Assembly: GCA_043228905.1 (NCBI GenBank)
Contig: JBHGNT010000021.1
Span: 8,866,001 to 8,930,000 of the forward strand
Length of the DNA stretch: 64,000 bases
Reading direction: 5' to 3'
DNA from: Azolla caroliniana
Taxonomy: Eukaryota > Plantae > Polypodiophyta
Below the pieces are notes generated by a model. It was not told where the DNA came from, searched no databases, and worked only from the letters and a program-made list of their open reading frames with translations. The stretch's first letter is position 1. The number at the start of each line of letters is the position of its first letter. A program made the translations under genes and the position numbers. Below are positions 23,687 through 51,694 of the stretch, one piece after another.

Positions 23687-26600
23687 TCACTTTGATAAGC
23701 TCAATCGTTTCATATCCGCCGTGATAACACTATCATTTTCTGACTGCTGTTGAGTTACCCTCGAGGAGAAGGTAACGGCATGGAGTGGATGATCCCTAAC
23801 CGTTAGCCCAAGAACATCCGGACGAGCATAGTGACCCACTACGTCAAAATCAAACTTTGCCCTAACGATGTCTCCAAAATCTATATATACAAACAAGACA
23901 ATATATCCCTTTCTTAACCATGATGTTAACAAAAACATATCCTATTGAGACACAATCCATTGAATTTACATGTGATATTCTCATCTCCCATTTTCATGGA
24001 TATTCTCACTTCCACAGACCTCATTTAGGGCTCCCTTAAACTAGAACTTATAATAGATTTCCTAATGCTTAGCCTCTGATCTCCTTCAACATTCTCGTGC
24101 CTAGACCTGATCTTTACGCTTGGCTTTGGAGGTTATGGTGGGAGAAAATTTTGAGTAAATAGGCATCGCTTAGTTGGAGAGAGGTTAAAGGGGGGGGTCT
24201 ATGGAAGTAGAAAAATATCCATGAGATGGGAGGCAACAATATCATAGCAGACTCTGAATCCAGAATAAAACTATTCGAAAACCCTATAAAAGAGATCAGG
24301 TTTACTGAATCAATAACGGGCATTGAGATATCTATGGAGTTCTCATGAGAGAACAAAAGGATTCAATCTATATGAATGGGTCCTTACAGAGTCTAGCTTA
24401 AGGTGAAAGGCCCATAATTAAAGATTAAACCTCTCTGTCTGAATCCACACTTATGAGGGAGGTTGAGGAACTCAATAACTAAAATAGGACCCTCATGCCC
24501 AACTTTCATCATTGAATGATCACCACTTTTGGAAACTTTCCATTAAAGTTGGCCTATATATAAAAGACCAAAGCCCAAAACCATATTTTCATCATTCAAT
24601 AAGCAACACTCTTGAGCTTTTGCCATTGGCTTGTCCCACAACAGATTCAAATGTCTTCCTCGCTGTTTTAATCTCAATACAGACGTTGTGATATGCCATT
24701 CATTTAAACCTCCTAATATTCTAAAGGCTTCAAAGGTTATTTAGAATATACCGTGTAACAAAAACTAGAGTGTTAGTAGTTTAGGGGTTAACAGTATCTC
24801 TTACTCTGTTTAGTGACGTTAACATACTTCTACTTGTAGACATGTATGTGTAATGAATGCTAAAGAGTTGATAGTTATCTGTGTCAGGTTAACACCATTT
24901 TTTACTATTATGGGATGTTAAAACACTTCTTGTATGCATCCATGCATTGCATGTATGTAACATATGAATTTCTGTTACTGGTGTTTTGTACTCACCGATC
25001 TCAGTAGATATAAGTGCTTCATCTTCATAGTTGGGCCCTGCCAAAACATTTCCCAAGGGAGAGATGATAACACTTCCACCAGAGCATACCACTTCATCAG
25101 GTGATGGTTCTTCTTCTAATCCTCCAAAATTGTATTCTGCTGGTGGAGGATAATCTCTCCTGCGACAGAACTGGTTTGCAGACAAAACAAAACAACCACC
25201 TTCTAATGCAATATGTGTCATAGATGCTTGCCAGCTCACTCTTGAATCTGCTGTAGGAGCACAATATAGTTCTATACCTGCCCAAAAGTTCCCACAAAAA
25301 GTACTGAATCGTATATCTTGAAATACAAAGTTCTACATCTAAGACAAATTCCCCGTAAAAGAATTGATATAAGACAGTTCTATAGAATCCAAATAAAAAT
25401 GTTGACATATGGCAGCTTGAAATAGAAAGTTTTACACCTGAAAACAAATTCCCACAAAGAATTGGTAAATAGCTTGAAATATCAAGCTTTTGCCCGACAA
25501 AAAATCCCCCAAAAAGTATTGGAATATAGCTACAATTACAAAGCTCTGCAACTGACAAAGAATGCCCATGAAGGTATTCTTATACAGCTTACAATACAAA
25601 GTTCTAAAGAATCAACAATTACTTATACTTGAAAAACAATCAACTCAATAAAAAGGACTCCCATGAAAGTATTGGTATACAGTTTCAAATAAAAGCTCCA
25701 CGCCTGAAAAGCAATCAATTCAAAAGCATTGAAGCATAGTTTGAAATACAATGCTCTATGCTTGACAGAAAATCCCCACAAAAGTAATGATTTAGTAGCT
25801 TGAAACAAAAAACTCTGACTGAAAAAGAATCCCTGAAAGAATACCAATAAGCAGCTTGAGATACAAAGTTCTGTGCCTGACAAAGAGCTCATCACAAAGA
25901 TATTGATATCTACATTACAATATAAAGCAAAGAGGGAGTGTGGAAAGAAAAAACTATAAGAATAGTTCACCTTTGGCATACATTGCTGTTCTGAGAAGGG
26001 GCATTCTATTTTCCCAGCATATTAAAGCACCGATACGACCCACCTGGGTATCAAGTACTGGCAATGTTGATCCATCACCAAAACCCCAAATTATTCGTTC
26101 GGCAGCTGTTGGCATAAGTTTCCGATGCTTCCCCAAGTATTGCCCTTGAGAATCAAAGAATATTACACTGCAATAAAGTGTCCCGCCTGATCTTTCGATA
26201 ACGCCCATGACAAGATGTATTTTATATCTAGCTGCAGCACTTGCTAGTTTATCCACCTCTGGTCCTGTAAGAAGAAGATGAAACAAAATGGAGAAGTCTT
26301 TAGCAAAGCTTATGATGCAAAAAAAGATATAACCCACTGAAAATCTGACTCTTAACAAAACCATCTGTAAATCTAGTGGCTAATTTTTAGGGGGGAAAAA
26401 CTTCATTTGAATCATAGCATTTTGACGTTAGCATTGATTTCATTTTTGAAAAACAATAGGCTCATATAACTGCACATCAGAACCGCCAACAATAAACATA
26501 TGAAATGCATCCTAACCATCATCATATTGTCCTAGTTGACTGTATCATATGCCTTCTGAAGGTAAAGAAATAAGACGATCAATCTTTGTTTGTTCCACCC

Positions 26601-29600
26601 ACTGGCCTTGATAGAGGTGAAGTTATTGTTCATGATGAACCTGCCTTTTAACAAGTCCAGTCTAGGCATAGTTGATCAGTTGTATCGATCCATCGTCTTT
26701 ACTTATATTGGTGTTTAATACTTAAACCTTTTGGACGCATTAATTAACTTCCTCGTTTAAGTTTTCTTCATCAGAGGGTGAGAAGAAATTCTCTAGGTTA
26801 AGGTAAGTGAGGTTAGTGGCTTGACAGTGCTTGTCAACCATTCTCATCCGACTCAGCATCAATAGGGCATAGAGCAGTCCAGATCCCTCAGTAAATGATA
26901 TTGGCTTGGAGTCATAACTCTGCCAATATAAAGATGTGCATTGGATGAGTACACCTTGAACCAACACATCCTTTTGGCACCACTGCAAGAAAGTCCACGC
27001 AAGGCTGAAGCTTGACGCCATCAGTAAGCTTTTCATAAGCTTTTGAGGTTAACTTTGCCTACCCAGGGAATGAAGCAAAGAGATTAAGGAGGCCTTATGT
27101 CTGTCATAATGAGTGAAGGAGGAGGCTAAACCAGAGAGTTTAGACCTCTTAAGCGGGCTGTTGTGTGCTTAGTTTTGCTTTTTAGTTGATTTTCTGTTTT
27201 TTATAGTTTTCTTTCTTTTTACTTAGTGATTACATCTAGGATTAACAAATCAAGATACAATATATCTAATCTAGCTAGTACATGCTAGAGTCTAGGGCAA
27301 CCTATGCTATAAAGATCCATCCTATCCATGTCTAGTAGATAATAGACCAGCTTCATGCTGTAAGGATTCACCTTTTTATCCTTTTCCACTCATTTTTACC
27401 CAGATCAATCTTATACCAGCATTCACCTGTAGTTCGGCTCAAGTCTAGTATTGATGGACATATTGATGGTAAAACATTTGGCCCCCCCCAGAGCAACAAA
27501 CATAATAAGAGATGTCAACTTGCAATCTCTGTCAATCTGGAATTCCAGCTTCTGAGCATCATAGGAATATAGGCTGTGACATGAAATTATGATAAATCCA
27601 GTTGCTTCTCAACACAGTTTTCAAACTTAATGAATTGAAATATATAAAATTAATGATTCAAACAATCCAATAAATTATGAAAAAACTGCCAAGGAAGGTG
27701 TACATTATAAGATCGAATTAATCGAAAGATTTGAACAATAAAATGCATAAATAAAACTAAAGAAAAATGAGAAAAGCTCACTAAACTGAGAAAAAAAATT
27801 CAAAAAATGAGATTCATGGCAGAAAGTCAGCACTTATCATTAATTTATTGCATGTTGAAAGATTTATGCATGTGACAGTTGACTACTAATGTGTATAATC
27901 AGAATCACAATAAGTAGGATAACGCTTTGGGACTAAGAATAACTACAAACAGGAGAAATACCTGGAACTTCTATAGCTGATGCGTGGTATTTTCTAAAAT
28001 CTTCCCGACCCTTTGAAGACCGCTTCCCAATTACTGCACCAAATGTAGCTCCTCGAGGATATCCACCAATGAAAGCTTCTGGAAACACAACCAAATGTGA
28101 TCCAAGTGCTGCTGCTTCTGCAATCAATCTCTCTGCCTTATCTGCGACATGAACCAACATAGAAACAATGGTAACTAAATGATTCACCCTTTCTTGCAGG
28201 ATCAGAACTAAATGTTACAAGATTGTTGACATTAGCAAAAGAAAGATAGCAAGATAGATTTTACTATCATCCTCAAAGGACAAATTATCTATGGAACCAA
28301 AACTGAATCATGTTTACATAGTAGTGACTCTCAATATTCAAGAATTTTACAGATAAAAGTTGCAATTGAGAGTGCACATTGTGACTGTGTGATGAATATG
28401 TGTAGAAAGTGGACCAGATCGATACAGGAAAAAAATTCAAATGTGATAAAATGTAGTGCATTGTATCAGAGTGTGATACTTTGGCTCCCCCACTTATTCA
28501 GGGGAAAATATGCATAGTCGATGAGTCTCCTTGCCTGTGCCCCAGAAACCCATCTCATATTGAAGAGAATGTGAACTACCATGAATCGATGAGTCTGGTT
28601 TCCATGTTCCGAGAAGACGATGGTTTTGAAGTTTGGTGCAACATACGCAATATATTGTGTGAAACAAGAGTCTCCACATCTTTTCTAAGCTGCGGAACAT
28701 TGGCGTTGCAAAAAAATCCTCATTCACAAAGGAATCTATTGATACCTCATGAAGTAAATGTGATGCACTCCATTTTCCAACCGATTTCTCTATATCTTTT
28801 GTACATGTGGAACTTGAAATTTTGCTTTTGTGTCTTTTGAATCTTTTTAGTTGCTTCCGATGCGATCAAAAAGAGAGAAAGAAAGAAGAAGAAAGATATA
28901 TTAACGTCTTTTAAGAGGCCAAAATGGCCTATAAGACCAAACAAGAGATTACATCTTAAGTGTTGTCTCGTCTTTGAGAACAACAAATAAAAAAAATAAG
29001 TAAATAATACTCCGTAAGTATAAAAGTATATAAGATAAAAAGAGACGAGGGAATTTGGTTTTCGGCACATGTGAGATTCTCAAGTTAGATATATTGTAGC
29101 TTTTGTTTTGGAAAGATCTCTAGCATAGGTCGATCCAGAATGGAGATGTCTCCGAAGTGAGGGAAGCACCTGCGATGGCGGGAGATAATGGCTTTTATCT
29201 ATCGATGACAAGGGTGTCGGGGTCGTGGTCCATGGGGTCGGGGCCTACGTGCACGGCAAATTGCTATTGCCCGATCAATTGCAACCCCTTTCTTATGTCT
29301 TGGTCGGGAGCCCATTTGTGTATTCCGTGATTGACTTTGTAGTTAGGAGTGATGGGGCTAAAGAAAGTTGTGATTGTTCTTTGTGGATGAGCTTGTGTGG
29401 TTGTATTCTTCAACAACTTTTCCCGATGTCTCTTGAGATCTAGCAAGAAAAGTCCTAGGCATCGTTGGTCCTCATATTCCATTACCTTGTGTAGTGGGCC
29501 AAAGCCTTGTTTAAAGAGGCAATGGTATCTCCCTCTGATTTCATATATTGTATAGACGAAACTAACAAAAAAGACTCTTGATGCTACAAGTGTTTAGGGG

Positions 29601-30119
29601 ATAAATTCTCCTTATGTTCCAAACTTCAAATACTATGGAACAATCTATTCAAGAAAAAAATGGTTGTGACTAATAAAGATACACTGTTGGATTAAGTTGG
29701 TATTGTTGGCATGCCTCCTTTGTTTGACCATTGGTAGAGATGACAAAACATTTCGTCATCTCTTTGATGTTACAATAGAAGAAAAAAGAAGATGTACCCG
29801 TCATATGACAAGAAACTTAATTTTGATCACTTTCAAACTTTATCGCTTGTGAGATTTTTTTCCATTGATTTTAGAATGTCATGGAACAAGGCTCTAAGGA
29901 AACATTATCATATATTTTTATGATTTATTGTCTAAAGCACCTTTTCTCAATGGCGCAATATATTGAATTGATACCTAGAGTAGCAGGAGTATCATAGAAT
30001 ACAGTAGAAGCCTGAACGACTGTTGCACGAATAGTGCGAGTTGGTGGGAAACTCATCATGTCAATATCTGAAATTACAGGGACATCTGCCATGACTCCCA
30101 TCCTTAAGGATCCTTCCAT
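23687..30119 (-). CDS. NIT4: Nitrilase, NIT4-type (beta-cyano-L-alanine hydratase/nitrilase). Exons 30119-29975, 28141-27962, 26264-25971, 25277-24996, 23880-23687; 364 aa
   Basis: Catalytic triad motifs FPEAF, HRKLMPT and ICWENRMPL. Plant NIT4-like segments [18 protein letters not shown] and [14 protein letters not shown]. All introns are GT-AG in phase 1; total 1095 nt. Confidence 0.92.
25278..25925. repeat. Degenerate ~60-bp tandem array filling NIT4 intron 3
   Basis: Roughly 10-11 copies of a unit like CAGCTTGAAATACAAAGTTCTACACCTGACAAAGAATCCCACAAAAGTATTGG. Confidence 0.75.
28480..29520 (-). mobile_element. Possible degenerate LINE 3' fragment in NIT4 intron 1
   Basis: Only weak zf-RVT-like peptides; the composition differs from the surrounding intron. 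Confidence 0.25.
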
Positions 30120-34684: not shown

Positions 34685-37061
34685 TGTCGAATATTGGTCT
34701 CTAATGGCTGTAATCACATTGTATCTTGGACAAACTAGATTTAGGACAATTCTCTAAATATGTCAAAGGGCAGTTGCCCTAGCCCAGTTAGTATATAAGG
34801 GGCTTTGTAACCTAGTTTGTTGTTGTTGCTATTGTTAGAGAGTTGCCACCTTCTGAATAAAAAAATTACATCTTGTGTAGCTCTCTGTCTCTCTCATGCT
34901 GTTCCTTGATCTTGCTCTCACTCTTACACTTTGTGATCTTCATAGCAAGGTGTTGTTTATGTTTCCACACTAAGTTCTCGAACTCCAACATTTGGTATTA
35001 GAGCTGAGATTCTTCAACTCGCTACTAGCCATCATTAGTCTTCAACAACATTCTTGCTTCGTCTCCTTTGAAGAACCTGAGTTCAAGATCTCACATTGAG
35101 AAGAGAAAGAAAACAGAAGATTTGCACTCCACCAAGCTAGATCACTCTTGAGGTAAGCCAGTCGGTTGTACCTTGCTTTCGTGATTGCAGCCACTCGAAG
35201 TGGTATCTCCACCAAATTAGCCTAGATTGTGCTTTACCATGTTAGACACAATCTACTAGCTTTTCATAATCACTCAAAGCAGATCCTATCCCAGAACAAC
35301 CCCTATTTGTGCTTCACTCGGCTAGACGACATTCGGGAGGACCATTAGGCTCTGTACCTCTCATCGTTATAGTCACCTGAAGTAGGATTGACCTGGATAA
35401 TCGGCACAAAATTTGTGATTGACATCTCAAAATCGGCATCTGAAATCCAATCGACAGATTCGTATCCAACTCGATTAAGTCGATTGTAGTCACTTCGGAT
35501 AGAATCGACCAATAGTCGAAGCTGATTCGACTTGTGTTCAAATCTGACTAGAACAATATCGGGAGAGCCAGTCGGATGCATCCTATCGTAGTTCGTAGTC
35601 GACTCCAAACAGAGTCCAGTCAACAAACACAGATGGCATCAACATCCAGCTTATCAGAGATGGGTCTAAGGAAGTTCGATGGATTGAACTTCAACTTTTG
35701 GAAGGAGCAGATGCAAGACTATCTGATAGTCAAGAGGCAAATCGACCCCAACGAAAACGAAAATGCTCCAGAAGCATACAAGCCGAATGAGTGGCAGAAG
35801 CTGGACAGAATGGTTTGCGCCACAATTCAGATGCACTTGTCGGAGTTAGTGTACTTCATAGTGCAATTGTGTTCGATAACCCTTCAACTATGGAAGACAT
35901 TATCGGACACTTATGAGGAGAAGATTGCCGCCACAAAGATATATTTGATTTGGCACATCTATAACCTATTGATGAAAGAATCTGACTCGGTCCAGGCACA
36001 CTTGAACGAGTACGAAAGTTTAAGCTCCTAGATCTTGGCTCAGGGGACGACAATTAAAGATGAACTGAGAGCAATGTTGCTCATGAGCAGTCTCCCCCCT
36101 TTGTCGGAAACTTTTGTCACAATTGTGTGCAATGCTTCTACTGCCGTTGTGAAGTACTCCGAAGTTATGAGCGCAATACTGATTGAAGCAGCTCGGAGGA
36201 AATCATTTGCAAAAGATTCGATAGATAAAGCCTATGTAGTACAAGGTTTAGTCGACCGATCGAAGAGTCATGGAAGAAGTTCTTCCTGACAACTAAACAA
36301 TCAACGAAGTCGGAGCAAGTCTTGGACAACCGAATATGCAACTACTACAAGAAACCCGGGCACATCAAAGTCGATTATCGTGCACTCAAAGCCAAGAATG
36401 ATAAGGCTCAATGAGCTCATCAAAAGAGTGGCCAACATGAGGAGGTCAACTACGTTGGTTCTTCAAACCAAAGTATTGTTGAACGACCCGAACATACTAT
36501 CCATTGAGAACCTAGTCAAATCAGAAGCTCTGCTTACGATTGAGGAATTGAGCACAGGGCTCTTGGATTCGGGTGCCTCCTACCATGTGACCCCTCACAG
36601 ATCCCAATTTTAGCAATATTCGGTTCGACACTTCAACTTAGTACGAGTCGGAAATTCGCAGCATTGCGCTATTATCAGAATCGACACAATAGAGCTTAAC
36701 CTTCTGGGTAGCTCTACATTTGTACTACACAATGTCTGACATGTATCAGAGCTCTCACGACCGCTGATTTCAGTCGGACAATTAGACGAAGACGGCATTC
36801 GTGTCGGCTTCTCATCAAGAGGGTGGACACTCCATAGGGGGAACCTCCTGCTTGCTCGAGGACCGAAAGTACATTTGATGTACCCGTTATACGTCACACT
36901 CAAAGAGGGTGACTTGTTCCTGGTTGACATTCCCATGTCATCACTATGGCATGGACGACTCAGACACCTCAACAAGGCCTGCATCACGCATCTATCTAGA
37001 GCCAGCTACATCCCCAAACTCTCCTTCTCTTATCATCAGTTCTATGAGCATTGCTAGTATG

Positions 37062-40000
37062 TGTGAAAGTGTTTTTAGAATTCAAGGTATTGAAGTCTAC
37101 AAGAATATAAGGTATGGTGCGTTCACATCCGGAAGGCAAGATCACGAGCTAAGGTCTTGAGGATAAGTCAAACAAAAAGCAAGTCACGTGGAGAAAAGTA
37201 AAAGAAGAAAAAAGCGGGCACCAAAATGCAGTCTACAACGAACGCTCATAACTCATTCGTTTGGAAGCCAAATATAATGTGTAAATATGGGTTGGAAAGT
37301 TTGTGAAGAGAGCTATCCATAGGTTTTTAAAGCTCTAAATTTAGAGCTTCTACGAGGGAGATATGACGATTAGAAGATCGTTGTATCATAGCTAAGAATA
37401 GGAGATGGAAAAGCTGTAAAAAAAGCGTGGAAAAGAAAGCAAGCGAAACTTATCTACTAGAGGAGAACTTCATATAAAGCAAGAAGAGTGAGGTGGTGAG
37501 GGGGGCTTTTTTCTTGTGGGGTTTTTCTTGCCTATTCATGTAGTGCGTTTTTTCTAGTGATCAATTCATCCTTGTAGGCTTGAGTTTATGTATCTTCTTT
37601 CTCTTGTTTCTATGATCATCACTCCTTATTAATATATCTTTGTAGATTTGGGTTTCTATATCTTCCTTCTCTCTCTTTTCTATCATCATCTCTCTTTTCA
37701 TTTTTGGCGCTCCAGGGAGGGTCGATCCTTTCTGTATAACGGGAGGAACGGTTGTCCACTAATTGATGGTTGGATCTACCGATTCATCATCAAACTAATG
37801 GCACGATATGGAGTTCGCGATGCGACAGATCTACGAAGAGAACTTTTCCAATTGCGTATGGTTTCACCAATGTGCTACCTCGAGTATGAGAAGACGTTTT
37901 TGGATATATGGTCCACTTGGATTGGACTTGTTGGAGGCGTTGAAGATGTATACTTCAAGATGGAAAGATTCAAAGCAGGGCTAGATCCATATTTTCAATA
38001 TGAAGTGCATATGAAGTACCCAAGGTCTTTCCATGATTTGCTTCGAGTATGTCAAAGTTATGATCAACAATTGAAGAAGTTGTTATTCGGTGAAGCATAT
38101 GGATTATCGGCGTCATATACCATAAATCCAAGCTATAATAATTGTGGATCGGTCATGAGCCAACAACCAGCCTACTTGCAATGTCCGATTCAACAGGTTC
38201 CCTCATATCATTATTCTAATTTTTGGAGTTATAATGATGTCTATGAAGGTGATTTCAGAGACAATGAAGAAGAGGTGATGAATGTGGAGTTCCCCCATCT
38301 AGTTCATGAGGACAACCATGATATAAAGAATGATGATGTGAAAGACGAATCTAAGGAGATAGTTATGAGAAGCGATGTTATGGATGGTGATGCCAATGTA
38401 CATCATGTTGAGGACATTATTGATACAACAAGTGATATGGTGGTTGATGATGAATATGTGCAAGATGAAATGGAAGATATGACAAAAGAAGTTGTTGATG
38501 GTGAAGTACCCACAACGAAGTTGCAAGATGAAGAAGGTAACCTAGAAGTGATAGCTGGAGATTGGCTTTTGGAGATCAATGCGTGTAAGGAAGCATTGGT
38601 AAGTGCCAAGTTGCAGTGTATGAAGGTGTTCGTGCATGATTTATGTTTTGGATTTGCATTGAGTAGCAACAAAGTTATGTGGGCATCAACTCTTCAACAA
38701 CAATTTGACCAAGAGCCAAGAGATTTACTTGTAATGCATGATTGGAGTATCATTAACTTATCACCATCAAAGGATCCACCACAACTAATCAAATGTATAA
38801 AGGAGAAGGAATCATCTATCGACATTGGGAAGCAAGAAGAGGAAAGCATAACAATTGATGAATATTCGTGGGATAGGGAAAACAAATCATTCCACATGGT
38901 GTCTAAGGAGGAAGAAGAAGTCATTGAAGAGAAAAGTATTATCACCCTAAAGGGGAAAAAGAAGATGATTTCAAACGATGTCCAAGGAGGAGAGGATCTA
39001 AGGTTTATTTCTCTCTTTTTTAAGTTTACAAAGTTATTCATAAATGAGTATTCACAGATAAGAGTAGAAGGCATCAAGCACCACATCAAGTTGGAGAATT
39101 TGAAGTTTGTCTCACTTATTGTGGTTGTTCCAAAGGAGAAAGACGTCAACTTCCAATCCTTGAATGATTCAACCAAACGAGATTTATTTTTGCTTCCTTT
39201 TCGAGATGAGATTCTAGATGAAATGGTCATACATAAAAAACAAGGTAATGTGGAGAATGTGGTGTGCCAAGAAGAAAGTCATGTTGATGAAGCAAAGATT
39301 GACATAATTCAAAATATGACAATTCTGACAAGTCTCGAAGCTTTGAAGGTATTTGTACAAAAGGTTCGCTCGCTCGAAAGATTTATTCATATGTTAACAT
39401 GCTTACTTCTATCAAGAGTTATGTATCACATAGACCTACTTCTGTTTGGAAAGTTGATGAAGATATACTAATTGTTGTAACCTCTTTCTTTGTGTTGACA
39501 AGGAGAAAGATGGTGATGGCAATTGTCAATGTGTATGTGTGTGTGTTTAGAAGTGTGAGGTTTTTCCTATCGACTAGCGGGGGTTTTACTCACATAGTTT
39601 GTTTCTTTTCTATTTATTTTCTCCTTCTTTGTCTATAGCCATGAATAAGGCGAAGGAGAACCTTTAGTTTTATTAGTAGCTTAGGGTTCACCATAAATGG
39701 TTCACAAAAAAGCAAGGGGGAGGGCTAAATGTGAAAGTGTTTTTAGAATTCAAGGTATTGAAGTCTACAAGAATATAAGGTATGGTGCGTTCACATCCGG
39801 AAGGCAAGATCACGAGCTAAGGTCTTGAGGATAAGTCAAACAAAAAGCAAGTCACGTGGAGAAAAGTAAAAGAAGAAAAAAGCGGGCACCAAAATGCAGT
39901 CTACAACGAACGCTCATAACTCATTCGTTTGGAAGCCAAATATAATGTGTAAATATGGGTTGGAAAGTTTGTGAAGAGAGCTATCCATAGGTTTTTAAAG

Positions 40001-40368
40001 CTCTAAATTTAGAGCTTCTACGAGGGAGATATGACGATTAGAAGATCGTTGTATCATAGCTAAGAATAGGAGATGGAAAAGCTGTAAAAAAAGCGTGGAA
40101 AAGAAAGCAAGCGAAACTTATCTACTAGAGGAGAACTTCATATAAAGCAAGAAGAGTGAGGTGGTGAGGGGGGCTTTTTTCTTGTGGGGTTTTTCTTGCC
40201 TATTCATGTAGTGCGTTTTTTCTAGTGATCAATTCATCCTTGTAGGCTTGAGTTTATGTATCTTCTTTCTCTTGTTTCTATGATCATCACTCCTTATTAA
40301 TATATCTTTGTAGATTTGGGTTTCTATATCTTCCTTCTCTCTCTTTTCTATCATCATCTCTCTTTTCA
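37062..40368 (+). mobile_element. Element F: 3307-bp non-autonomous LTR retrotransposon (TR-GAG-like, Gypsy/Athila-type) with apparently identical LTRs
   Basis: LTRs 37062-37700 and 39730-40368 (639 bp, TG...CA, no difference seen). TSD GTATG at 37057-37061 and 40369-40373. PBS TGGCGCTCCAGGGAGG at 37705. PPT before 39730. Confidence 0.95.
37798..39471 (+). CDS. 557-aa Gag-C-terminal / acidic linker / deleted protease-RT fusion protein of element F
   Basis: Uninterrupted ORF. It has a capsid-like segment (LRRELFQLRM...FKAGLDP...PRSFHDLL), RT N-terminal remnants (VSLIVVVPK, LNDSTKRDLFLLPFRDEILD) and a thumb remnant (VDEAKIDII...RFI). There is no YxDD, RNase H or integrase. Confidence 0.75.
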   Translation: MARYGVRDATDLRRELFQLRMVSPMCYLEYEKTFLDIWSTWIGLVGGVEDVYFKMERFKAGLDPYFQYEVHMKYPRSFHDLLRVCQSYDQQLKKLLFGEAYGLSASYTINPSYNNCGSVMSQQPAYLQCPIQQVPSYHYSNFWSYNDVYEGDFRDNEEEVMNVEFPHLVHEDNHDIKNDDVKDESKEIVMRSDVMDGDANVHHVEDIIDTTSDMVVDDEYVQDEMEDMTKEVVDGEVPTTKLQDEEGNLEVIAGDWLLEINACKEALVSAKLQCMKVFVHDLCFGFALSSNKVMWASTLQQQFDQEPRDLLVMHDWSIINLSPSKDPPQLIKCIKEKESSIDIGKQEEESITIDEYSWDRENKSFHMVSKEEEEVIEEKSIITLKGKKKMISNDVQGGEDLRFISLFFKFTKLFINEYSQIRVEGIKHHIKLENLKFVSLIVVVPKEKDVNFQSLNDSTKRDLFLLPFRDEILDEMVIHKKQGNVENVVCQEESHVDEAKIDIIQNMTILTSLEALKVFVQKVRSLERFIHMLTCLLLSRVMYHIDLLLFGKLMKIY

Positions 40369-43300
40369 GTATGGAAAACAGATAGCCGCAACACACCCGA
40401 CATCATTACCGAGAGAATTGAGTCCATTCGGACATTCACGGTCCTATGCCACATCAGTCTCTCAGAGGTGCCTTGTACATCATCAGCTTTATCGATGACT
40501 CGACTTGCAAGGTGTGGGATTATCCCATCAAAACAAAAGATCGAATGGCTCACTATGGTAGAGAACCAGTCTGGTTGAAAGCGTAAATGTCTTCGAACCG
40601 ATAATGAGGGGAGTATAAGTCAGAGGAGTTCATCAAATTTTGCCGACAACGCGACATTCGACGTGAATATACGACACCCTATAGTCCGGAGCAGAATGGA
40701 ATTTGCAAATGAATGAATCAGACAATTCAAGAATGTATAGTTTCCATGCTCCAACACTCTGGATTGTTGAATGGTTTCTGGGCAGAGGCCCTACTTACGA
40801 CAGTACACATAATTAACATGTCACCGAGTAGGCCTCTAGGACTTCAAGTACCTCAAGAATTATGGACTAGTAAGAAGCCAAATTACGACAAGTTGAGGAT
40901 TTTCAGACGCGAGGCATACACCCCCATACTAAAAGACGACCGCTTCAAATTAGAACCGAGGTCTAGGAAATGTATTTTCCTTGGCTATGGACCAGACGAC
41001 GAGATTGGATACCAACTCTGGGACCGAGCATAGGTAGATCGTCCGAAGTTCAGACATAGTGTTCAATGAGTCAGTTATGCATAAGATGACCGATAGGCCT
41101 ATTGAAGTCTGAAGGGTAGCCTTCTTAGATGTGCCAACCCTTCATGATGACCCATCCCATAACACAAGGTCGGCTTCATGGGTAGCCGAATCCTCTAGCA
41201 CCAACTCAGACGCGCTCAATTTGGCACATCCAAACGATTCGGTTGTGGACCATCTGACTCCGACACCCGATGCGACTGATCCAGTCATACCTCGAAGATC
41301 CGAGCGATTGTCACAACCCCCAGAGAGGTACTCTCCTGGGATCTTCTTTACGGACCTCGGCGAACTGATGTCATACGAAGAAGCATTGACATCAGGCGAT
41401 TCGTCCTCATGGCATTTGGCGATGGAGTCAGAAATGAAGATCCATTCGGGCAAACAAGGCTTGGGACTTGGTTGAATTATCAAAGAATCAACGTGCTCTT
41501 CCATGCAAGTGGGTCTATCAAATCAAAGAGATGTCTGATTTAGCCATCCCAAAGTACAAGCCCAAACTAGTCGCGTAGGGTTTCTGATAGAAATATGGCA
41601 TCAATTTCGACGATATCTTTTCAACAATGGTGAAAATGGCAAACCTTCGATTCATGCTCGGCGTAGTGGGAACTAAAGATCTGGAGCTGATTCAGCTGGA
41701 TGTAAAAACGACATTCCTCCAAGGTGACTTAGAAGAGGAAATTTATATAGAGCAGCCGAAAGGCTTTGTGGCATCCGGCCAAGAACATCTAGTCTACTAA
41801 CTCAAGAAGAGTCTATACAACCTAAAGCAGGCACCGAGACAATGGTATAAGAAGTTAGACGACTTCATCCAATCAATCGGTTTCTCCAAGAGCAATGAGG
41901 AACACTGCCTCTTCATGAAAACAGCTCGAGATGGGTCACCCATCTTCCTCTTCATCTACGTGGATGACATGCTTCTCTCCAGTCGGCATGCCAGAGAGCT
42001 CGTCGAACTCGTTTGACAACTACGATTGAAGTTTACCATGAAGGACCTCATTCCTGCAAGGCACATTCTTGGAATGAAGATAAGTCAGAATCAAAACCGA
42101 AGACAGTTGTTTCTATCTCAATCTGACTACATTGGACGTGTCTTAGAGTGCTTCAACATGCAATCGGCCAAATCTGCTTCGACCCTGCTCCCCATTAACC
42201 TTCGGCTCCCTTAGTGAGACTGCTCGACATCCAGTCTGAAGGGGGAAGATATGAAGTCGGTACCATATGCACCGGCAATTGGCTCCTTCATGTACGCGAT
42301 GGTCGTGACACAGCCTAACATTGCTCATGTTGTAGGTGTCGTCAGCAGATTCATGCACAACCCAAGCTGATCGCATTGGAATGCAAGTAAGCATATATTT
42401 AGATACCTGGTGGGCACACAAGACCTTGACATTCTATTCGGTCCGAACAAAAACTCAGGCGTAGTCAGCTACACCAACTCAGATGGTTGTGTGGACAACC
42501 GAAAATCAACAACCGTATATTGTTTCAAATTCGGCAATGGAGCAATTTCATGAAATCAAAACTTCAAGAGTGCACTACCACATCAACAACTAAGGTTGAA
42601 TACATAGCCATGTATGATGTGGCGAAAGAGGCTTTATGGCTCGGTTAGCAAGCACACACGTTTCAACAAGTCGACTCTGACTCGGCTCCAATGGTCTACA
42701 TTGACAGTCAGGGTGTTGTTTGTTGAGTGGCAAGCTCAACCGGATCCGGATCAGCTGAATAAGCCTGAGCCGGATCGGCATCTGGAAGGATGAGACGGAT
42801 CGGTGAGATGGTGAGTAGGTGAGCCGGTGAGCTGGGGAGCCGGTTAGTCGGATCAAGCAGTAACCGGAAGCCAAGTAGTAGCTAGACTACTAGGTAGTTA
42901 AGGTCTTGTAGTTAGTGTTAGATGCTCGTGTGAGCATTGAAGTACACCGTACTTCTGTTAGTCCATATGGACTTGTATAAAAGTGTTCACTGAACACATA
43001 CGATGTATAGAGTATTACAGAGTTTTAGAGTTATTTTGAATATAGTCTTATGTTTTGCTCTTCCTCTCTCTCTATGTCTCTCCCGCGTACTGTGTATATT
43101 CAAGCTCTCCATTAAACCCGCGTTTCTGTGTTTTTCGGTTTTCTATTGCTTCCGCACACTATTCTTTCACATGGTATCAGAGCGCGAGGGTTGAGAACCT
43201 CTGCAGCCGACATCAGCATTTGAAGACAAACCCTAAGAATAGAAAGAGAAGTAATGGACAGAGGAATGGCTAGCTCGCTCTCGACGGAGAAGCTCGACAG

Positions 43301-45364
43301 AAACAACTACGTATCTTGGTCCTACAAGATGCACCAGTACCTTCTCGGGCACGATTACTGGAGCTATGTTGACGGAGCAAACGACACAACACCTGAATCG
43401 ACACACAGAGATTTCCCGGTGTGGGAACAATCGGCGAGCAGAGTATTGTACTGCTTCGCGTCTTGTGTGGGCGAACAACTCCTAAGCTACATTCGGGATG
43501 CAAAGACGCCGAAAGATGCTTGGGGAAATCTGAAGAAGATTTTTGCTACAAGCACTACAACCAGGAAGCTTCAACTCCGATAGGAGCTGAGCAACCTACA
43601 ACAACGCGACTTGTCGGTGGCAGACTACACCTCCAAAATCAAGGACATTTGCGACTCTCTGGCCTCCATCGATGTGAATATCGAAGAAGCCGATATGGTG
43701 CAAATCTGTCTCGGAGGTTTGGCGTCAAAGTTCGGAGCGTTCCAAATTGCTGTGTGTACAAGGGAGAATACGCCGTCATTTTTTGACTTACAATCGATGC
43801 TCCTTGTAGAGGAGAACCACGCCGGTGCGTCAAAAAGTGCACCCACCGACAACCGGATGCTGTACACAGAGGCGGATCGGCCCTGTGGGTGTGGTGGACG
43901 AGGCAGGTAGGCTCGCAATGGTAACGGTCGGCAAGAGCATGACCGAAGGCATAGAGAACGTGCCGACAACAGTTCCAGACCCTCCACAAGCAGGGGGAGT
44001 CAAGGCCCGCAAGAAAGGCCGACACGGAATGCTAGGGCCACAGAGAAAGCGTGTGCTGATTCGGACAGATCCGGATCCAGCAAGGCCGGCAAAGAGAACC
44101 GACAATACTCGCACTATGCAGAAGGATCGGGAGGATCCAAAACTGAAAAAACCAGTAAAGGGCCAACCTTGGTGATGAAACACGAGGCTAACTCAATGAA
44201 GAAGCTCACTTCCAAATCTAAGGAAGTGTGGTACGTTGATTCTAGTGTGTCGAATCACATGAAGAGGCACAAAGAGTAGCTCTCCTTCTTGGAGAAACCA
44301 GAACAACAAGGAGTCGTCGAAACCAGAGACGACACTCCTCACCCAATCGTGCATATTAGAGAAGTCCCTCTGAGCCACGTCAGACAGAAGGGGAAGCTGA
44401 TGAACATATTACACGTTCTGACTATCATGAAGAACCTGGTGTCAGTCGGTCAGATCGTTGACCAGGGGATGCAGGTGCGGTTTACGCACCTTGGGTGCTT
44501 CATCGAAGAAGAGGGCCAGATTATTGTGCAAGGGCGCAAAGAAGGGAGGATGTTCATCCTCGACACCAATGACGTCGACACCGCTTTGTTCGCCAAAGGA
44601 CAGAAGATTGAATCGGATATTGATCTCTGGCACAAGCGGATCGGCCACGTCAATTATTGGAGGCTTCAAGACCTGCAAACGAAACAAGTTGTTTTCGGTT
44701 TGCCGAAGTTCAGTGGCCGGAAGGCCCAAATATGTGAAGCCTGCCAACTTGGGAAGCAACACCGGCTTCCATTCCCCACGGAACGAAACCGTAGCCGTAA
44801 CAAGCTCGACCTTATTCATTCGGATGTATGGGGACCGGCACAGAATGTTAGTTTTGACGGGAGTCGATATTTCGTCTCCTTCATCGACGACTACTGTTGA
44901 GATCTTGACGCTTTCAAAACCTTCTTCTTCCTCGGCCACAACCGAGGAACCACGAATCAATGCAGCAGAAAATCGGAAAACACTGAGAGAGACTCGAATA
45001 CACAGGGTTTAACGTGGAAAACCCTAGACGGGAAAAACCACGGGAGTGCAAGACTCCAACGATCACTATATGCAGGGAATGTACAATGGCGAGCTGCAAG
45101 GCGACGACCTTGAGCTCGCTGTCCTCGCCACAGGCGGCGGTATTACACAGAGGCGTCGACCTCTTCCTTTCTCACTCTCTCGGTTGTTCTCACTTCGCTC
45201 CCTCTAAGTGAAAAACAGAAAATGAGCAACAACAACAAAACTGTTTGCCCTAAGTCATATTTATACACATATGACTTTTCGGGCTATTTACAAATACAGC
45301 CTCAAGGGCCCTTGGCAAACATATTCACTAATATGTCCCCGCATCCGGATCTCTCTCCGGGTAC

Positions 45365-45575
45365 ATTCGTCATCCGGCACCGTAGCCGGGGTCATCATCA
45401 TCCAGCTCCGTAGCCGGGGTCTTCATCATCCGGCTCTGAAAACGGTTCTTCATCATCCGGCTCCGGAACCCGGTCTTCATCATCCGTATCCGTAGCCGGG
45501 GTCTTCATCATCCGGCTCCGAAAACGGGTCTTCATCGTCCGGCTCCGGAAACCGGGTCTTCATCATCCGATTCCC
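45365..45575. repeat. ~27-bp tandem repeat array in the U3 of the Copia C LTR (also at ~50203-50413)
   Basis: About 8 copies of GGTCTTCATCATCCGGCTCCG with variable spacers. Confidence 0.9.
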
Positions 45576-45627
45576 GGACATCCGACCATCCCATCCGGAG
45601 GGACCGTAATCCCAACAAACTCCCCCT

Positions 45628-48600
45628 TCACTTCGGCATGGGATGTCTTTCCAGTCCGACCTTCTTCCGGCACGCTTCCAGCTTGTCGGGTGTGAGCACT
45701 TTGGTCAGCATGTCTGAACCGTTCTCGTCCGTGTGGATCTTCGTCAGCACGAACTCCTGGTCTTCTATCCTTTCCCGGATCCAGTGATATCTTCGCTGGA
45801 TGTGCTTCGTCCGGGAGTGATAGGCCGCGTTCTTCGCAAGATGGATGGCACTCTGACTGTCGCAGTAGAGTCGGTACTCCTCCTGCCGGATACCGAGCTC
45901 TCTAATGAAGTCCTTCATCCATATCATTTCCTTGCCGGCTTCAACAGCCACCATGTACTCCGCCTCCGTGGTTGACAATGCAACCGTCTTCTGCAGCCTC
46001 GACTGCCACGAAACAGCTCCCCCTGCATACGTCATCACATACCCTGATGTGGACCGGCTGGTATCTGCATCAGCTGACATATCCGAATCGGTAAAGCTGT
46101 CGAGTTCGGGCTTACCGGAGCCGAATCGGAGGCACACGTTTGCCGTGCCCTTCAGGTATCGGAGTATCCACTTGACCGCGTTCCAGTGCTCTTTGCCGGG
46201 ATTGCTCATGTACCGGCTCACCACTCCGACTGCATATCCTATGTCCGGTCTTGTACACACCATTGCGTACATCAAGCTTCCGACGACAGAGGCATATGGT
46301 ACTTTCATCATGTCCTCCTTCTCAGCCTTTGTCTTGGGGCTTTGCTTGCTGGACAACTTGCAGTTTGCCGGGAGGGTTGACCCGACCGGTCTTGCTTCCG
46401 ACATGTTGAACCGGTGAAGTACCTTTGTCACGTACTTCTCCTGTGACAGCCACAACTGCTTCTTCTTCCGGTCCCGGATGATGTGCATCCCTAGTATTTG
46501 CCTCGCCGGACCCAGGTCCTTCATTGAGAAGGTTCGGTGAAGCGCTTTCTTCAGCATCCGTATCTTGACCTGGTCCCGTCCGACGATCAACATGTCGTCC
46601 ACGTACAGGAGGAGTATTAGAAAGTCTCCTACTTCGAACTTCTTCACAAACACGCAGTGATCGGACTGCGTTTTGTGGTACCCTTCTTCGGTCATGAAAG
46701 AGTCGAACTTCCGGTACCATTGCTGGGGAGCCTGCTTCAGTCCGTAAAGGCTCTTCTTCAACCGGCATACCAGGTGCTCCTTCCCTTTCTTCTCGAATCC
46801 TTCCGGTTGCTGCATGTAGATCTCTTCTTTGAGGTCACCGTGAAGGAATGCCGTCTTCATGTCCATCTGTTCTACCTCGAGGTTCATGCTTGCCGCTATG
46901 CTCAGCACCGTCCGGATGGAGGTCATCTTCACTACCGGGGCAAATATCTCGTCGAAGTCGACGCCCTTCTTCTGCTGGAACCCCTTCACCACGATCCTGG
47001 CTTTGTATCTCGGGGGGCTTCCGGCATCTCCCGGTTTCAGCTTGAACACCCACCTGTTTCGAAGTGCCCGCTTTCCTTTCGGCAACTCCACAAGTTCATA
47101 TGTGTGGTTCTCATGCAGGGAATCCATCTCCTCCTGCATGGCACTTAACCACCTGCGGCTATGGGTGTCAAGCTTTGCTTCTTCAAAACTCTCCGGCTCC
47201 CCCTCGTCGGTTAGCAGCACGTGCTCTGGTTCCGGAAATCTCCGGGGGGCCCTTCTCTCTCTTAGAGGATATCTCCGTTCCGGAGCTTCGGTAACCGGCT
47301 CCTCCGTTTCCTCTTCATCCGAATCCATTTCGGGATCGGGGCCGGTTCCGGTATCAGTTTCATCTTCCTCGGCCGGTTCTGTTTCTTCACCGTCTTCGGC
47401 CCGATCCTCGAGTGCTAACCGGTCCCTTGCCGGTCGGGACTGCTCCTCGTAGAGTTGATCCTCACCGGTCGACTTGGAGCTCTTCATCTTCTTCTCCGAC
47501 TCCCAGTCGGCGAGTGTCTTGTCCTCCATGAAGATGATATCACGACTCTGGAATATCTTTTTGTCGACCGGGTCCCATACTCGGTAGCCGAACTCGTCAT
47601 CGCCGTAACCGAGGAATATGCATGGCCGGGTCTTTGGATCTAGCTTTCCTCTCCGGTCCTTTGCCACATGCACATATGCGAGACACCCGAACACCTTCAG
47701 ATGCCGGTAGGATACTTCCCTACCGGTCCACACTCTCTGCGGCGTGTCTCCGTCCAAAGGTACTGAGGGTGATCTGTTTATCACGTATGTCGCCGTCGAC
47801 ATTGCCTCAACCCAAAACCCCTTGGGTAATTTCGCATGCGCCAGCATACTCCGGACCCTCTCCATTATGGTCCGGTTCATCCTCTCGGCCAGCCCGTTCA
47901 GTTCCGGCGTCTTCGGCACAGTAAACTCGAGCCGGATTCCCTTCGAGCGACAGTACTCCTCGAATTGCCCCCGGTATTCCCCTCCGTTATCCGCTCGTAT
48001 CGCTTTCAGCTTCTTGCCGGATTCCCTTTCCACTCTCGCGTGGAGTTCTTTGAAGACGCACAACACTTGGCTCTTTGTCTTCAACGGTGCCGTCCACAGC
48101 TTCCGGCTGTGGTTATCAATGAATGTCACGAAGTACTGGGCTCCGCCATGTGACTTCGTTTCTACTTGACACACGTCAGTGTGCACCAACTCCAATGGTG
48201 CGCTACGTCTCGTCGGTGGCCTTGAGTGGAAGGAGGTTCGGTTCTGCTTATCGGCCAGGCAATCGGTGCACTTCTCCAGGTGCACATGCTTCACTGGAAT
48301 AAGGTTGTCTTCTGCAAGCCTCTTCATCCCCTTCTCACTCATGTGGCACAGTCTCTTGTGCCACAACTCACCGGCAGTGTCGGCTGCCACGTTCAACTCT
48401 TCCGGACACAACCAGGCATTCATAAGGTACAGTGTGTTGACTTTCCGGGCCCGAGCCACTATCAGGCTCCCCTTGCTGAACTTCATTACGCCGTTCCGGA
48501 TGCTACCTGTGTAGCCTTCATCGTCTAGCCTCCCGGCCGAAATCAGGTTCAATCGAACCTCCGGAACGTGTCGGACATCCTTCAGCAACATTTTGCATCC

Positions 48601-49701
48601 GGTCGAGGTTGTCAACCACACGTCTCCTATGCCGGCAATCCGGCACGTACCTTCATTTCCCATCCGAACACAGCCATGCTCACCGGCTGTGTAGGATGAG
48701 AAGTATCTTCTTTCCGGGGTCAGGTGGAACGACGCTCCGGAATCGACCACCCAGGTAGTCTCATCGCCGGCAATGTTTAGTTCACCTTCTTCGGTGATGA
48801 GCATGATCTCCTCTTCACTTGCCGCGAGTGCCGTCGTTCCTTTCCGGTCCTGCCCTCGCCGATCCGAACCATTCCGGTCCGTGGCTCCCCGGTAAGCACC
48901 GTTCTGTTCCGAAGACTTCTTCGAATCGGTGTCGTCGGCTCCGTTGTCTTTTCGGTAATGCCGACAATTCTTTCGGAAGTGCCCCGGCTTCCCACAGTGG
49001 AAGCATGTGGGCCTTCCTCTTGACTGCGACCGGGTCCCCGACTTCTCCCGTCTTTGCGGACTCCGGTTCCGTTGTCTTCCCCGATCCGATTCGGTAAGCA
49101 ACATCTTTGGATCGGAGGCCGGTTCTTTATCTCTCCGACGCGCTTCTTCGTTCAAAATGCTTGTCTTTACCGTTTGTAAGGACAAGTTATCTTCGGTGCA
49201 GGAGGTGCTGAGAGTCACCACCAAGTTCTCCCAGCTCTCCGGCAATGTACACATCAGGATGATGGCTTGCATTGCATCCTCCAACGGGAACTTGATCCCC
49301 GCAAGCTGGTTCACGAATCCCATGAACGTGCTTACGTGTTCCACCATACTCTCGCCGTCCCGGTACTTGAGATTCACTATCTTCCTCATCAGGGAGGTCC
49401 GGTTCAACGCATTCTTCCTCTCGTAGAGGCCCGACAGCTTCCGCCACATCTCATATGCGTTGGTGTCGTTCGCCACATGTTGTAGAACGCTCACGTCGAC
49501 GTATTGCCGAATGGTTGCAACGGCTTTCCGGTTCAGAAGCCTCCATTCCGTCTCAAGTACCCCCTTGGGTATTTCCGACCTGTCGATCGGTTCATACAGG
49601 TCCCGAACAATGAGCAAATCCTCCATCTTTATCTTCCAGTCGGCGTAGTTCTGCGCATTCAGCACCATCATCCCCGGCTGCCCGCTGCTGCCGCCTTCCA
49701 T
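45628..49701 (-). CDS. Copia C Gag-Pol polyprotein, 1357 aa (Gag, Zn knuckle, protease, integrase, RT, RNase H)
   Basis: Single ORF from the first ATG after the PBS. Motifs CFHCGKPGHFRKNC, WVVDSGASFH, HTDVC, RADNGGEY, LYVDDML, FTDSD and KHIQRRYHW. Confidence 0.95.
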   Translation of the reverse strand: MEGGSSGQPGMMVLNAQNYADWKIKMEDLLIVRDLYEPIDRSEIPKGVLETEWRLLNRKAVATIRQYVDVSVLQHVANDTNAYEMWRKLSGLYERKNALNRTSLMRKIVNLKYRDGESMVEHVSTFMGFVNQLAGIKFPLEDAMQAIILMCTLPESWENLVVTLSTSCTEDNLSLQTVKTSILNEEARRRDKEPASDPKMLLTESDRGRQRNRSPQRREKSGTRSQSRGRPTCFHCGKPGHFRKNCRHYRKDNGADDTDSKKSSEQNGAYRGATDRNGSDRRGQDRKGTTALAASEEEIMLITEEGELNIAGDETTWVVDSGASFHLTPERRYFSSYTAGEHGCVRMGNEGTCRIAGIGDVWLTTSTGCKMLLKDVRHVPEVRLNLISAGRLDDEGYTGSIRNGVMKFSKGSLIVARARKVNTLYLMNAWLCPEELNVAADTAGELWHKRLCHMSEKGMKRLAEDNLIPVKHVHLEKCTDCLADKQNRTSFHSRPPTRRSAPLELVHTDVCQVETKSHGGAQYFVTFIDNHSRKLWTAPLKTKSQVLCVFKELHARVERESGKKLKAIRADNGGEYRGQFEEYCRSKGIRLEFTVPKTPELNGLAERMNRTIMERVRSMLAHAKLPKGFWVEAMSTATYVINRSPSVPLDGDTPQRVWTGREVSYRHLKVFGCLAYVHVAKDRRGKLDPKTRPCIFLGYGDDEFGYRVWDPVDKKIFQSRDIIFMEDKTLADWESEKKMKSSKSTGEDQLYEEQSRPARDRLALEDRAEDGEETEPAEEDETDTGTGPDPEMDSDEEETEEPVTEAPERRYPLRERRAPRRFPEPEHVLLTDEGEPESFEEAKLDTHSRRWLSAMQEEMDSLHENHTYELVELPKGKRALRNRWVFKLKPGDAGSPPRYKARIVVKGFQQKKGVDFDEIFAPVVKMTSIRTVLSIAASMNLEVEQMDMKTAFLHGDLKEEIYMQQPEGFEKKGKEHLVCRLKKSLYGLKQAPQQWYRKFDSFMTEEGYHKTQSDHCVFVKKFEVGDFLILLLYVDDMLIVGRDQVKIRMLKKALHRTFSMKDLGPARQILGMHIIRDRKKKQLWLSQEKYVTKVLHRFNMSEARPVGSTLPANCKLSSKQSPKTKAEKEDMMKVPYASVVGSLMYAMVCTRPDIGYAVGVVSRYMSNPGKEHWNAVKWILRYLKGTANVCLRFGSGKPELDSFTDSDMSADADTSRSTSGYVMTYAGGAVSWQSRLQKTVALSTTEAEYMVAVEAGKEMIWMKDFIRELGIRQEEYRLYCDSQSAIHLAKNAAYHSRTKHIQRRYHWIRERIEDQEFVLTKIHTDENGSDMLTKVLTPDKLEACRKKVGLERHPMPK

Positions 49702-51654
49702 TTTCTGCACTACAGTCGCTCTGATACCAGATTGTTGAGATCTTGACGCTTTCAAAACCTTCTTCTTCCTCGGCCACAACCGAGGAACCACGAATCAATG
49801 CAGCAGAAAATCGGAAAACACTGAGAGAGACTCGAATACACAGGGTTTAACGTGGAAAACCCTAGACGGGAAAAACCACGGGAGTGCAAGACTCCAACGA
49901 TCACTATATGCAGGGAATGTACAATGGCGAGCTGCAAGGCGACGACCTTGAGCTCGCTGTCCTCGCCACAGGCGGCGGTATTACACAGAGGCGTCGACCT
50001 CTTCCTTTCTCACTCTCTCGGTTGTTCTCACTTCGCTCCCTCTAAGTGAAAAACAGAAAATGAGCAACAACAACAAAACTGTTTGCCCTAAGTCATATTT
50101 ATACACATATGACTTTTCGGGCTATTTACAAATACAGCCTCAAGGGCCCTTGGCAAACATATTCACTAATATGTCCCCGCATCCGGATCTCTCTCCGGGT
50201 ACATTCGTCATCCGGCACCGTAGCCGGGGTCATCATCATCCAGCTCCGTAGCCGGGGTCTTCATCATCCGGCTCCGAAAACGGTTCTTCATCATCCGGCT
50301 CCGGAACCCGGTCTTCATCATCCGTATCCGTAGCCGGGGTCTTCATCATCCGGCTCCGAAAACGGGTCTTCATCGTCCAGCTCCGGAAACTGGGTCTTCA
50401 TCATCCGATTCCCGGACATCCGACCATCCCATCCGGAGGGACCGTAATCCCAACAACTACAACCGACACACATGGATCTACCTCATTGAGCGGAAGAGCG
50501 AAGTCTTCGAGTGTTTCCGGAACCTGCAAAGCCTGGTTGAATGGGAAATGGAGAGGAAGATCAAGTGCCTGCGGTCGGATGGTGGAAAAGAATATTTTTC
50601 CGGTCAATTCAACAGTTATCTGCAGCAAAAAGGAATTCGGAGAGAGTTCAACTGTAGATACACACCGGAGCAAAACGGTGTGGCCGAAAGGAAGAACTGG
50701 TCAATTGTTGATGTAGCAAGGGCAATGCTGGAGGAGAAGAGCATGCCCCATTTCTACTGGGCGGAGGCGGTCCAGACGACGGTCTACATCCAAAACCGGA
50801 TCGGTGACAAGGTGTCCTCGCATGAGCTATATTTCGGGCGCAAGCCGAATTTGAGACACCTTCGGATATTCAGTAGCATTGCATATGTGCATGTGCCGGA
50901 TGAGAAGCGGAGGAAGTTGGATGCAAAGTCGGAAAAATGCATCCTGGTCGGTTACTCGCATGAGCAAAAGGGGTATAAGTGTTATAACCCCTGGACGAAG
51001 CAGGTTTGCGTTAGCCGGGATGTTGATTTTGATGAGACGGTGTCGTGAAGAAAACCGTCCACAAGCGGAATCGGTGCACCGGAGCGTAGGAACCGGCTCT
51101 TCATACACGTGCGCCTTATGTAGTACATAGAAGATCCTCGGTAGGTAGGAAGTTAATAGGAAACGGCTCCTTCCTTGCCTATAAAAGGAGGGAGACAAGG
51201 AAGAGAGAGGGAGCGCGGAGAGTCGAGGACGAAGTGCTGTCGGTTTGTGTGCGAAGGCTTCTCTCTCTCTCTGGTTCGCAAACTCCATAGCTTCCTTCTG
51301 TGCAGGTTTCGGGAGGCTCGCGCTGCTCTGAGGAATGCCCGAGTGCTTCCGGCAGCACCTCCAACCTCCTCCTTCCTTTCTGTGCGTTTGTGAACAGGTA
51401 TCGGCATCTGTTCGCCGGCCTGTTCGGTTGTAACCGACTTCGTGTTTTGGTTGTCTGTCTTTGTTAATACATACATACATCCGTGTCTCTCTGTGTCGCT
51501 GTCCCACTCGCGTCTTTGTGTCGAAGGGCTGTGTCCTTGTGAATCTACTCTCGCACGTAGTGGGTCTCTTCTCCTTTCTCTCTTGCTCTTCGGTACAGGA
51601 CCCCCGAGGTCCCGCCTCATTCCACACATCCGCGAGGAATACCCTTGACATCTT

Positions 51655-51672: not shown

Positions 51673-51694
51673 GGAGGCGGCAGAAGAGCAGAAG

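Follow-up and report, generated by a model that had tools for sequence, protein, structure and literature searches.

A non-autonomous LTR retrotransposon family of Azolla caroliniana whose open frame may be kept for translation of its RNA more than for its protein

We describe a non-autonomous family of retrotransposons with long terminal repeats (LTRs) in Azolla caroliniana, one copy of which lies at 37062-40368 of the window, that is, the whole stretch of 64,000 nucleotides analysed here (contig JBHGNT010000021.1 of GCA_043228905.1, positions 8,866,001 to 8,930,000, forward strand). Its single open reading frame (ORF) joins half of a Gag capsid to remnants of a reverse transcriptase (RT) without the palm. 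As judged from the variants among its copies, the open frame is under selection and the protein only weakly so. We consider it somewhat better than an even chance (roughly 0.55) that the element is a Tat-type gypsy using particles that an intact helper supplies, and that its ORF stays open because the RNA must be translated to the normal end, not mainly because of the function of the protein.

Shared variants (present in two or more insertions) were compared with private ones (a single insertion) in the 43 young copies, defined as those with both LTRs within 1%. The shared variants comprised 32 synonymous, 74 missense and no nonsense changes, where the mutation spectrum predicts 26.7, 73.8 and 5.5 (p 0.003), and the private variants comprised 43, 137 and 9, respectively (Fisher p 0.029 vs shared). 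Similarly, the shared ORF indels of all 77 analysed copies were multiples of three in seven of seven cases, plus one compensated -2/+2 pair, compared with 12 of 31 private ORF indels (p 0.008); outside the ORF, three of seven shared indels were multiples of three. These results agree with the first-pass annotation of this DNA, which had proposed selection on the open frame. It had also taken the strong amino acid divergence as a sign of selection on the protein, and this part was not supported. The ratio of nonsynonymous to synonymous change (dN/dS, omega) of the shared variants is about 0.84, indistinguishable from 1, and their counts differ sharply from those of the autonomous family X, the presumed helper (43 synonymous and 23 nonsynonymous shared variants, Fisher p 9e-6; omega 0.44 in nine copies). 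For 42 young copies, omega was 0.73 over residues 1-385 and 0.98 over residues 386-556; the annotation had named a dN/dS near 1 as evidence against its proposal, and this value is reached by the RT remnants and nearly, though not fully, by the 5' part. A three-point dS on the Gag stem was unusable because family X and a second autonomous family, Y, are saturated against each other. At codon 524, we rejected the idea of a stop inherited by a whole clade, as the position is a CGA site hit in four copies.

From this depletion of stops and frameshifts only, we propose that the RNA has to be translated in cis. Parasite and helper RNAs would be packaged together and recombine in reverse transcription. 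A premature stop would create a long 3' untranslated region (UTR) and might lead to nonsense-mediated decay (NMD), or it might instead remove the RNA from the translating pool that supplies the cargo of helper Gag. Copies with stops would thus seldom have progeny. The capsid domain that is still present may contribute a further tether in cis, though a weak one.

A 25-mer from the half-Gag gave 101 matches across the 523-Mb genome, and the family has about 100 copies. From these, 87 full-length interiors were extracted (partial or interrupted matches were excluded) and 10 tandem units or duplicate contigs were removed, leaving the 77. The LTR pairs of the young copies showed 67 mismatches in 27,634 aligned bases, and 13 of the 43 pairs were identical; the first-pass annotation had rightly called the element young and non-autonomous. 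The ORF was intact in 34 of the 43, in 8 of 20 copies with more than 1% LTR divergence and, where an LTR pair was lacking, in 2 of 13. Copies lie on all large contigs, with target-site duplications (TSDs) of their own, which excludes both a single-copy element and an assembly collapse. An automatic check found a perfect TSD in 33 of the 43 young copies, the other 10 being tandem units, parse failures or cases with one mismatch. The young copies are star-like and 98-100% alike, and form two subfamilies set apart by in-frame indels (557 vs 586-589 aa). LTR-sharing tandem arrays are present, and the 5' and 3' trees are discordant, indicating recombination among copies. Inverted LTR pieces or head-to-head rearrangements adjoin copies L006, L007, L014, L041, L059, L069 and L127.

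The features of the copy in the window, all on the plus strand, are as follows.
37057-37061: 5' TSD, GTATG (sequence)
37062-37700: 5' LTR, 639 bp, TG...CA, with TATAAA at 37473
37705-37721: primer-binding site (PBS) TGGCGCTCCAGGGAGGG, five bases past the 5' LTR
37766-37798: 10-codon upstream ORF, its stop overlapping the main ATG (sequence)
37798-39471: single 557-aa ORF, with capsid C-terminal domain (CTD), unalignable linker and palm-less RT remnants (ORF list and alignment)
37816-38091: CTD of the Gag capsid with five helices, aa 7-98; N-terminal domain of the capsid missing (alignment and predicted structure)
38092-38547: linker, Q/P/Y-rich (aa 99-149), then acidic (aa 150-250); zinc knuckle missing
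38548-38718: aa 251-307, weak resemblance to the RT thumb end of X and Y
38719-38964: remnant of the protease (PR) C-terminal flank and acidic PR-RT spacer, aa 308-389; catalytic DSG missing
38965-39237: remnant of the RT N-terminus and fingers, aa 390-480, with several in-frame deletions
39256-39468: RT thumb remnant, aa 487-557, abutting the fingers across the deleted palm
39472-39729: 3' untranslated stretch, 258 nt, of equal length in X
39706-39724: polypurine tract (PPT; sequence)
39730-40368: 3' LTR, same as the 5' LTR (sequence comparison)
40369-40373: 3' TSD, GTATG (sequence)

The marks of a recent insertion reported at first pass were all found again: the two LTRs have no differences, GTATG is intact at both flanks, PBS and PPT are in place, and one stop-free frame of 612 codons spans 37633-39471, with 37798 as the first in-frame ATG of the interior. 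When the interior was shuffled 1,000 times, the longest frame reached at most 182 aa (mean 92), against the 612 codons observed. Functional PR, RT, RNase H and integrase are all missing, and the family is multi-copy, recently active and accompanied by an autonomous partner with common cis elements; the element is hence a non-autonomous LTR retrotransposon. Its LTRs are 88-89% identical to those of X overall and 98-100% in the final fifth, and the final 180 nt of the 3' untranslated stretch are 91-99% identical to X. The PBS is common to X, Y and a further family, U; no tRNA gene was found in the window. The stop codon precedes the 3' LTR by 258 nt both in the element and in X, by 261 nt in Y and by 262 nt in U; RNase H and integrase were thus lost up to roughly the position of the original stop. 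The upstream ORF meets the main start as TAATG in 58 of the 77 copies and as TGATG in 14, and this overlap could be a candidate site of termination-reinitiation; in copy L089, an 8-nt deletion joins the upstream ORF to the main frame. The element is inserted into what we take, from motifs, to be a decayed copia-type pol (36290-37061 and 40369-41033).

Alignment to X and Y bore out the anatomy described at first pass, namely half a capsid, a protease flank, and RT fingers and thumb, with palm, RNase H and integrase lost. Residues 7-98 align to X residues 83-174 with 58% identity, about 75 aa of N-terminal capsid being missing. A model of this domain from 22 sequences had five helices and a predicted confidence (pLDDT) of 89, and matched the copia capsid (Z 12.0), PEG10 CTD (11.8), dArc2 C-lobe (10.6) and Drt2 (9rxy; Z 9.8, root-mean-square deviation 2.3 over 85) as well as the Ty1' CTD (9rxw); Foldseek was concordant with capsid CTDs, though every row was above E 0.001. 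Since this part is the capsid CTD, the ORF begins at a domain boundary. The origin of aa 99-250 was sought in X, Y, a third relative and family Z, none of which gave a match, and ESM Atlas placed aa 95-310 with gag-protease clusters (top 0.85), which is a lead only. For aa 251-307, the resemblance to the RT thumb end had a shuffle p of 0.01 (X) and 0.003 (Y), and the third relative gave no match. From aa 308, the Pol part has about eight gaps relative to X, all in frame as previously supposed, the largest (about 109 aa) being the palm. The zinc knuckle and the protease active site are likewise missing from the ORF, and the net charge of the protein is -37. These are poor properties for an RNA-binding adaptor and disfavour the earlier idea that the protein loads RNA in trans. 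A Pfam search of the ORF and its parts returned no family, a PDB sequence search of the ORF only chance rows (best E 0.42), and an AlphaFold model of the whole protein from six sequences was uninformative (pLDDT 27.7). The predicted complex of the CTD with the helper capsid (score 0.01) was counted neither for nor against any reading.

The helper dependence suggested at first pass is supported by family X, which has the LTR, the PBS, the PPT and the 180 nt directly preceding the 3' LTR in common with the element. A database relative, P0006, allowed us to locate autonomous families in the same genome. X is 6.8 kb long with a 1,734-aa ORF in the order Gag-PR-RT-RNase H-aRH-integrase, aRH being a second RNase H, and five X copies have LTR pairs 99.4-100% identical. 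In its polyprotein, RT_RNaseH (994-1099) is followed by RVT_3 (1148-1269) and then by integrase. According to PMC6317226, a second, archaeal-type RNase H marks the Tat clade, and the same domain order is given for Ogre and Retand. We therefore place X in the Tat clade of Ty3/gypsy by its domain order. The palm pattern of X gave 14 matches, compared with 101 for the half-Gag, or about one helper per seven parasites. Coding pieces of X and the element are 69-75% identical, and despite this, all five X LTRs nest among the parasite LTRs in the LTR tree (best pairs 98.3-99.7%), which points to co-packaging. Old interiors with the LTRs of the current helper would be expected from template switching between co-packaged RNAs. 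Older copies (L073-L076, L124, L128, L135, L137, L150 and L152) have the same interior with a different LTR of about 720 bp, which is today found mostly as solo LTRs; this suggests an earlier helper or LTR replacement. A search for the autonomous owner of this older "C-type" LTR found none, all ten fetched loci being without an adjoining interior and resembling solo LTRs. Two chimeras were also seen, one with the 5' half of the element fused to X-like pol (L116:1630-6349) and the other with the full capsid of X fused to the 3' part of the element (L142:5140-7037).

A search with the PBS (209 matches, of which 20 were fetched) led to family U, which provides, with Y, a second parasite-helper pair and thus an internal replicate within one genome. 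U is 3.2 kb long with the LTRs of Y and one frame of 705-748 aa, in which the Gag-protease of Y (86-97% identity) is followed, in frame and with a different junction, by the same palm-less cassette of fingers, thumb and 3' UTR (79% nucleotide identity to that of the element). Of the U matches at 98-100% identity, 28 of 39 lie within frames of at least 700 aa. The U loci (L181-L183, L186, L191, L192, L198, L200; G000 C2:4208000-4216500 and others) are young and include tandem arrays of up to four units. Y (L105, L106; G000 C10:11465300-11475200) is autonomous and compact Tat-type, with a 1,768-aa ORF, the order RH-aRH-INT (RNase H, second RNase H, integrase), no extra ORF and many near-identical young copies. 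In family Z, which is older and mostly decayed, the cassette stands behind an X-like Gag. The cassette pattern has 193 matches in the genome. Among the palm-less lineages, omega of the cassette is 0.45-1.05, vs 0.06-0.08 for X vs Y, and the frames are still open at a dS of 0.2-0.3 in the cassette. As a bolder and rather improbable extension, a portable dead-RT cassette (fingers and thumb without palm, with the native 3' UTR) might have been joined in frame to Gag in two or more helper families, and here to a lone capsid CTD as a co-translational hook. The parasite RNA might then outcompete its helper about 7:1, as the plant retrotransposon counterpart of a defective interfering particle that brings along a packaging adaptor.

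Related organisms hold similar elements. Four database proteins from other assemblies are 83-85% identical and intact, with additional in-frame deletions, and contigs of related organisms span the interior with two replaced segments of net -39 and -279 nt. Sequencing runs X3 and X4 are RNA by their spliced contigs (in X3, those of a neighbouring gene), and run X1 behaves as DNA. Run X3 contains a 960-nt contig across the leader, ATG and capsid domain and none across the flanking copia. This suggests that a relative of the element is transcribed, at a level and on a strand that the contigs do not give.

Several observations weigh against our preferred reading. The omega of 0.73 for residues 1-385 differs from 1 (p 0.026), indicating weak protein constraint, and omega is 0.58 between the window copy and L074 and 0.43-0.83 in the thumb block. 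The CTD retains 19 of 20 well-conserved columns and is predicted to fold confidently. When old copies are included, 8 stops are found vs 14.6 expected among variants in at least three copies (p 0.04), and the deficit disappears against singletons (Fisher p 0.84); this fading is mostly owed to C-to-T changes that recur as stops among decayed copies. Of the 43 young copies, nine are broken, and L002 and L062 carry stops despite identical LTRs, so that stop-bearing templates may sometimes be copied. Of the 11 short-frame U matches, seven belong to two tandem arrays carrying a break, and one joint in a related run is net +17 nt, not a multiple of three. Moreover, DNA-level conversion could partly underlie the LTR sharing.

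The closest competitor, which we regard as possible but clearly less probable, is that the protein acts in cis: the nascent capsid CTD would co-assemble with helper Gag and pull the ribosome-bound RNA into the particle, the remaining frame being an inert tether barred from early termination. The start of the ORF at the domain boundary, the predicted fold and retained columns of the whole CTD and the omega below 1 of the 5' part are consistent with this, as is the retention of residues common to X and Y, which is 69% in the CTD vs 54-57% in the RT remnants (p 0.05-0.11). The Gag-Pol fusion of the mouse element IAP 1delta1, which is reported to act in this way, offers a precedent (PMC6466679, PMC7411935). 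On the other hand, variants in the CTD do not avoid the conserved columns (9 of 29 shared ones fall at the 20 conserved of 98 sites), the shared CTD variants are 7 synonymous and 16 nonsynonymous, and CTD conservation could stem from recent capture from an autonomous parent. In addition, a CTD tether leaves unexplained why the frame crosses the dead RT cassette also in U and Z, both of which have full capsids.

It is rather unlikely that no selection operated and that a few master copies which chanced to have an open frame passed it on to all young copies. The star-like similarity of the young copies, the omega near 1, the GAA/GAT-rich linker, which favours 3-nt deletions, and the mostly broken ORFs of old copies would all suit such a founder effect. 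However, it is strained by the absence of stops among 106 shared variants, by shared indels that preserve the frame in seven of seven cases, by about eight older gaps that do likewise, by junctions that arose independently and in frame in U, Z and related organisms, and by lineages that stay open at the cassette dS given above. Least probable of all is a dominant-negative inhibitor that limits the helper by disturbing capsid assembly, as p22 or DRT2 do: the predicted isolated CTD fold resembles Drt2 and the Ty1' CTD, Ty1 is restricted by CTD-only proteins (PMC8458377, PMC10951436) and X is scarce beside the element (Y being numerous beside U), but the element itself amplifies through X, an effect in trans gives the encoding copy no private advantage and leaves the purging of stops along transposing lineages unexplained, above all in the 460 residues past the CTD, and no fixed, domesticated locus was seen.

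Among known systems, translation of the RNA to its end has its nearest parallel in IAP 1delta1. In that non-autonomous LTR element, an in-frame gag-pol deletion has left a single fusion ORF; both Gag and Pol have to be provided in trans, its new insertions exceed those of the helper, and its translation acts in cis (PMC6466679, PMC7411935); our element is likewise an in-frame gag-pol deletion fusion kept in mobile lineages. Unlike IAP 1delta1, a mammalian endogenous retrovirus, it is a plant gypsy with an interior only about 70% like the present helper, it has lost the capsid N-terminal domain, zinc knuckle, protease site and RT palm by many separate deletions, and the case for it is evolutionary, not experimental. 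Defective (interfering) RNAs, e.g. those of Flock House virus, are also helper-dependent deletion derivatives, in which passage enriches frame-preserving deletions, the need for the product being unclear (PMC5435362); unlike theirs, the cycle of the element includes reverse transcription and integration, and its record is genomic copies. TR-GAG elements resemble it as short, non-autonomous LTR elements of plants whose one ORF derives from Gag and whose autonomous partner can be traced (PMC8704663, PMC13570524). However, they have a full-length Gag without pol remnants (PMC8704663), whereas the element has the CTD only, followed by RT remnants; family U, with full Gag and cassette, is closer to them. 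Ty1 p22/p18 and DRT2 also open with an isolated capsid CTD of the same fold (PMC8458377, PMC10951436), but an autonomous copia element produces p22 through an internal transcript and DRT2 is a host gene that is fixed, while the element is a parasite that is mobile and has an acidic tail of 460 aa. In cattle ERVK C/D, MusD/ETn and KoRV/recKoRV, the defective partner is commoner than the competent one, has LTRs and flanks in common with it, undergoes recombination with it and contains an old, swapped interior; D-type elements are described as without intact ORFs, unlike the element, which has kept its frame (PMC10924933).

In plants, LTR elements that are non-autonomous and keep pol remnants are already known and usually seen as decaying debris (PMC13570524). 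Our literature search, of limited coverage, found no plant report of selection on the frame without selection on the protein, and none describing a cassette that is CTD-only, or portable and palm-less. If the frame is selected more than the protein, propagation of the parasite RNA by the helper would depend on its translation as far as the natural end, which would tie plant retrotransposons to the cis-translation rule of mouse IAP 1delta1 and viral defective RNAs. The natural alleles make testable both the cargo choice of helper Gag and NMD as a filter on which defective elements spread.

Elsewhere in the window, three nested LTR pairs occupy 42721-60277 (42721/59978, 44895/49733 and 51041/57455), and a 27-28 nt tandem repeat is present within them at 45362-45583 and 50200-50421. 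On the minus strand, 23029-30100 is a spliced host gene by RNA contigs, with introns at 23881-24995, 25276-25968 and 28142-29974, and it includes a very high-copy repeat near 28886-29839.

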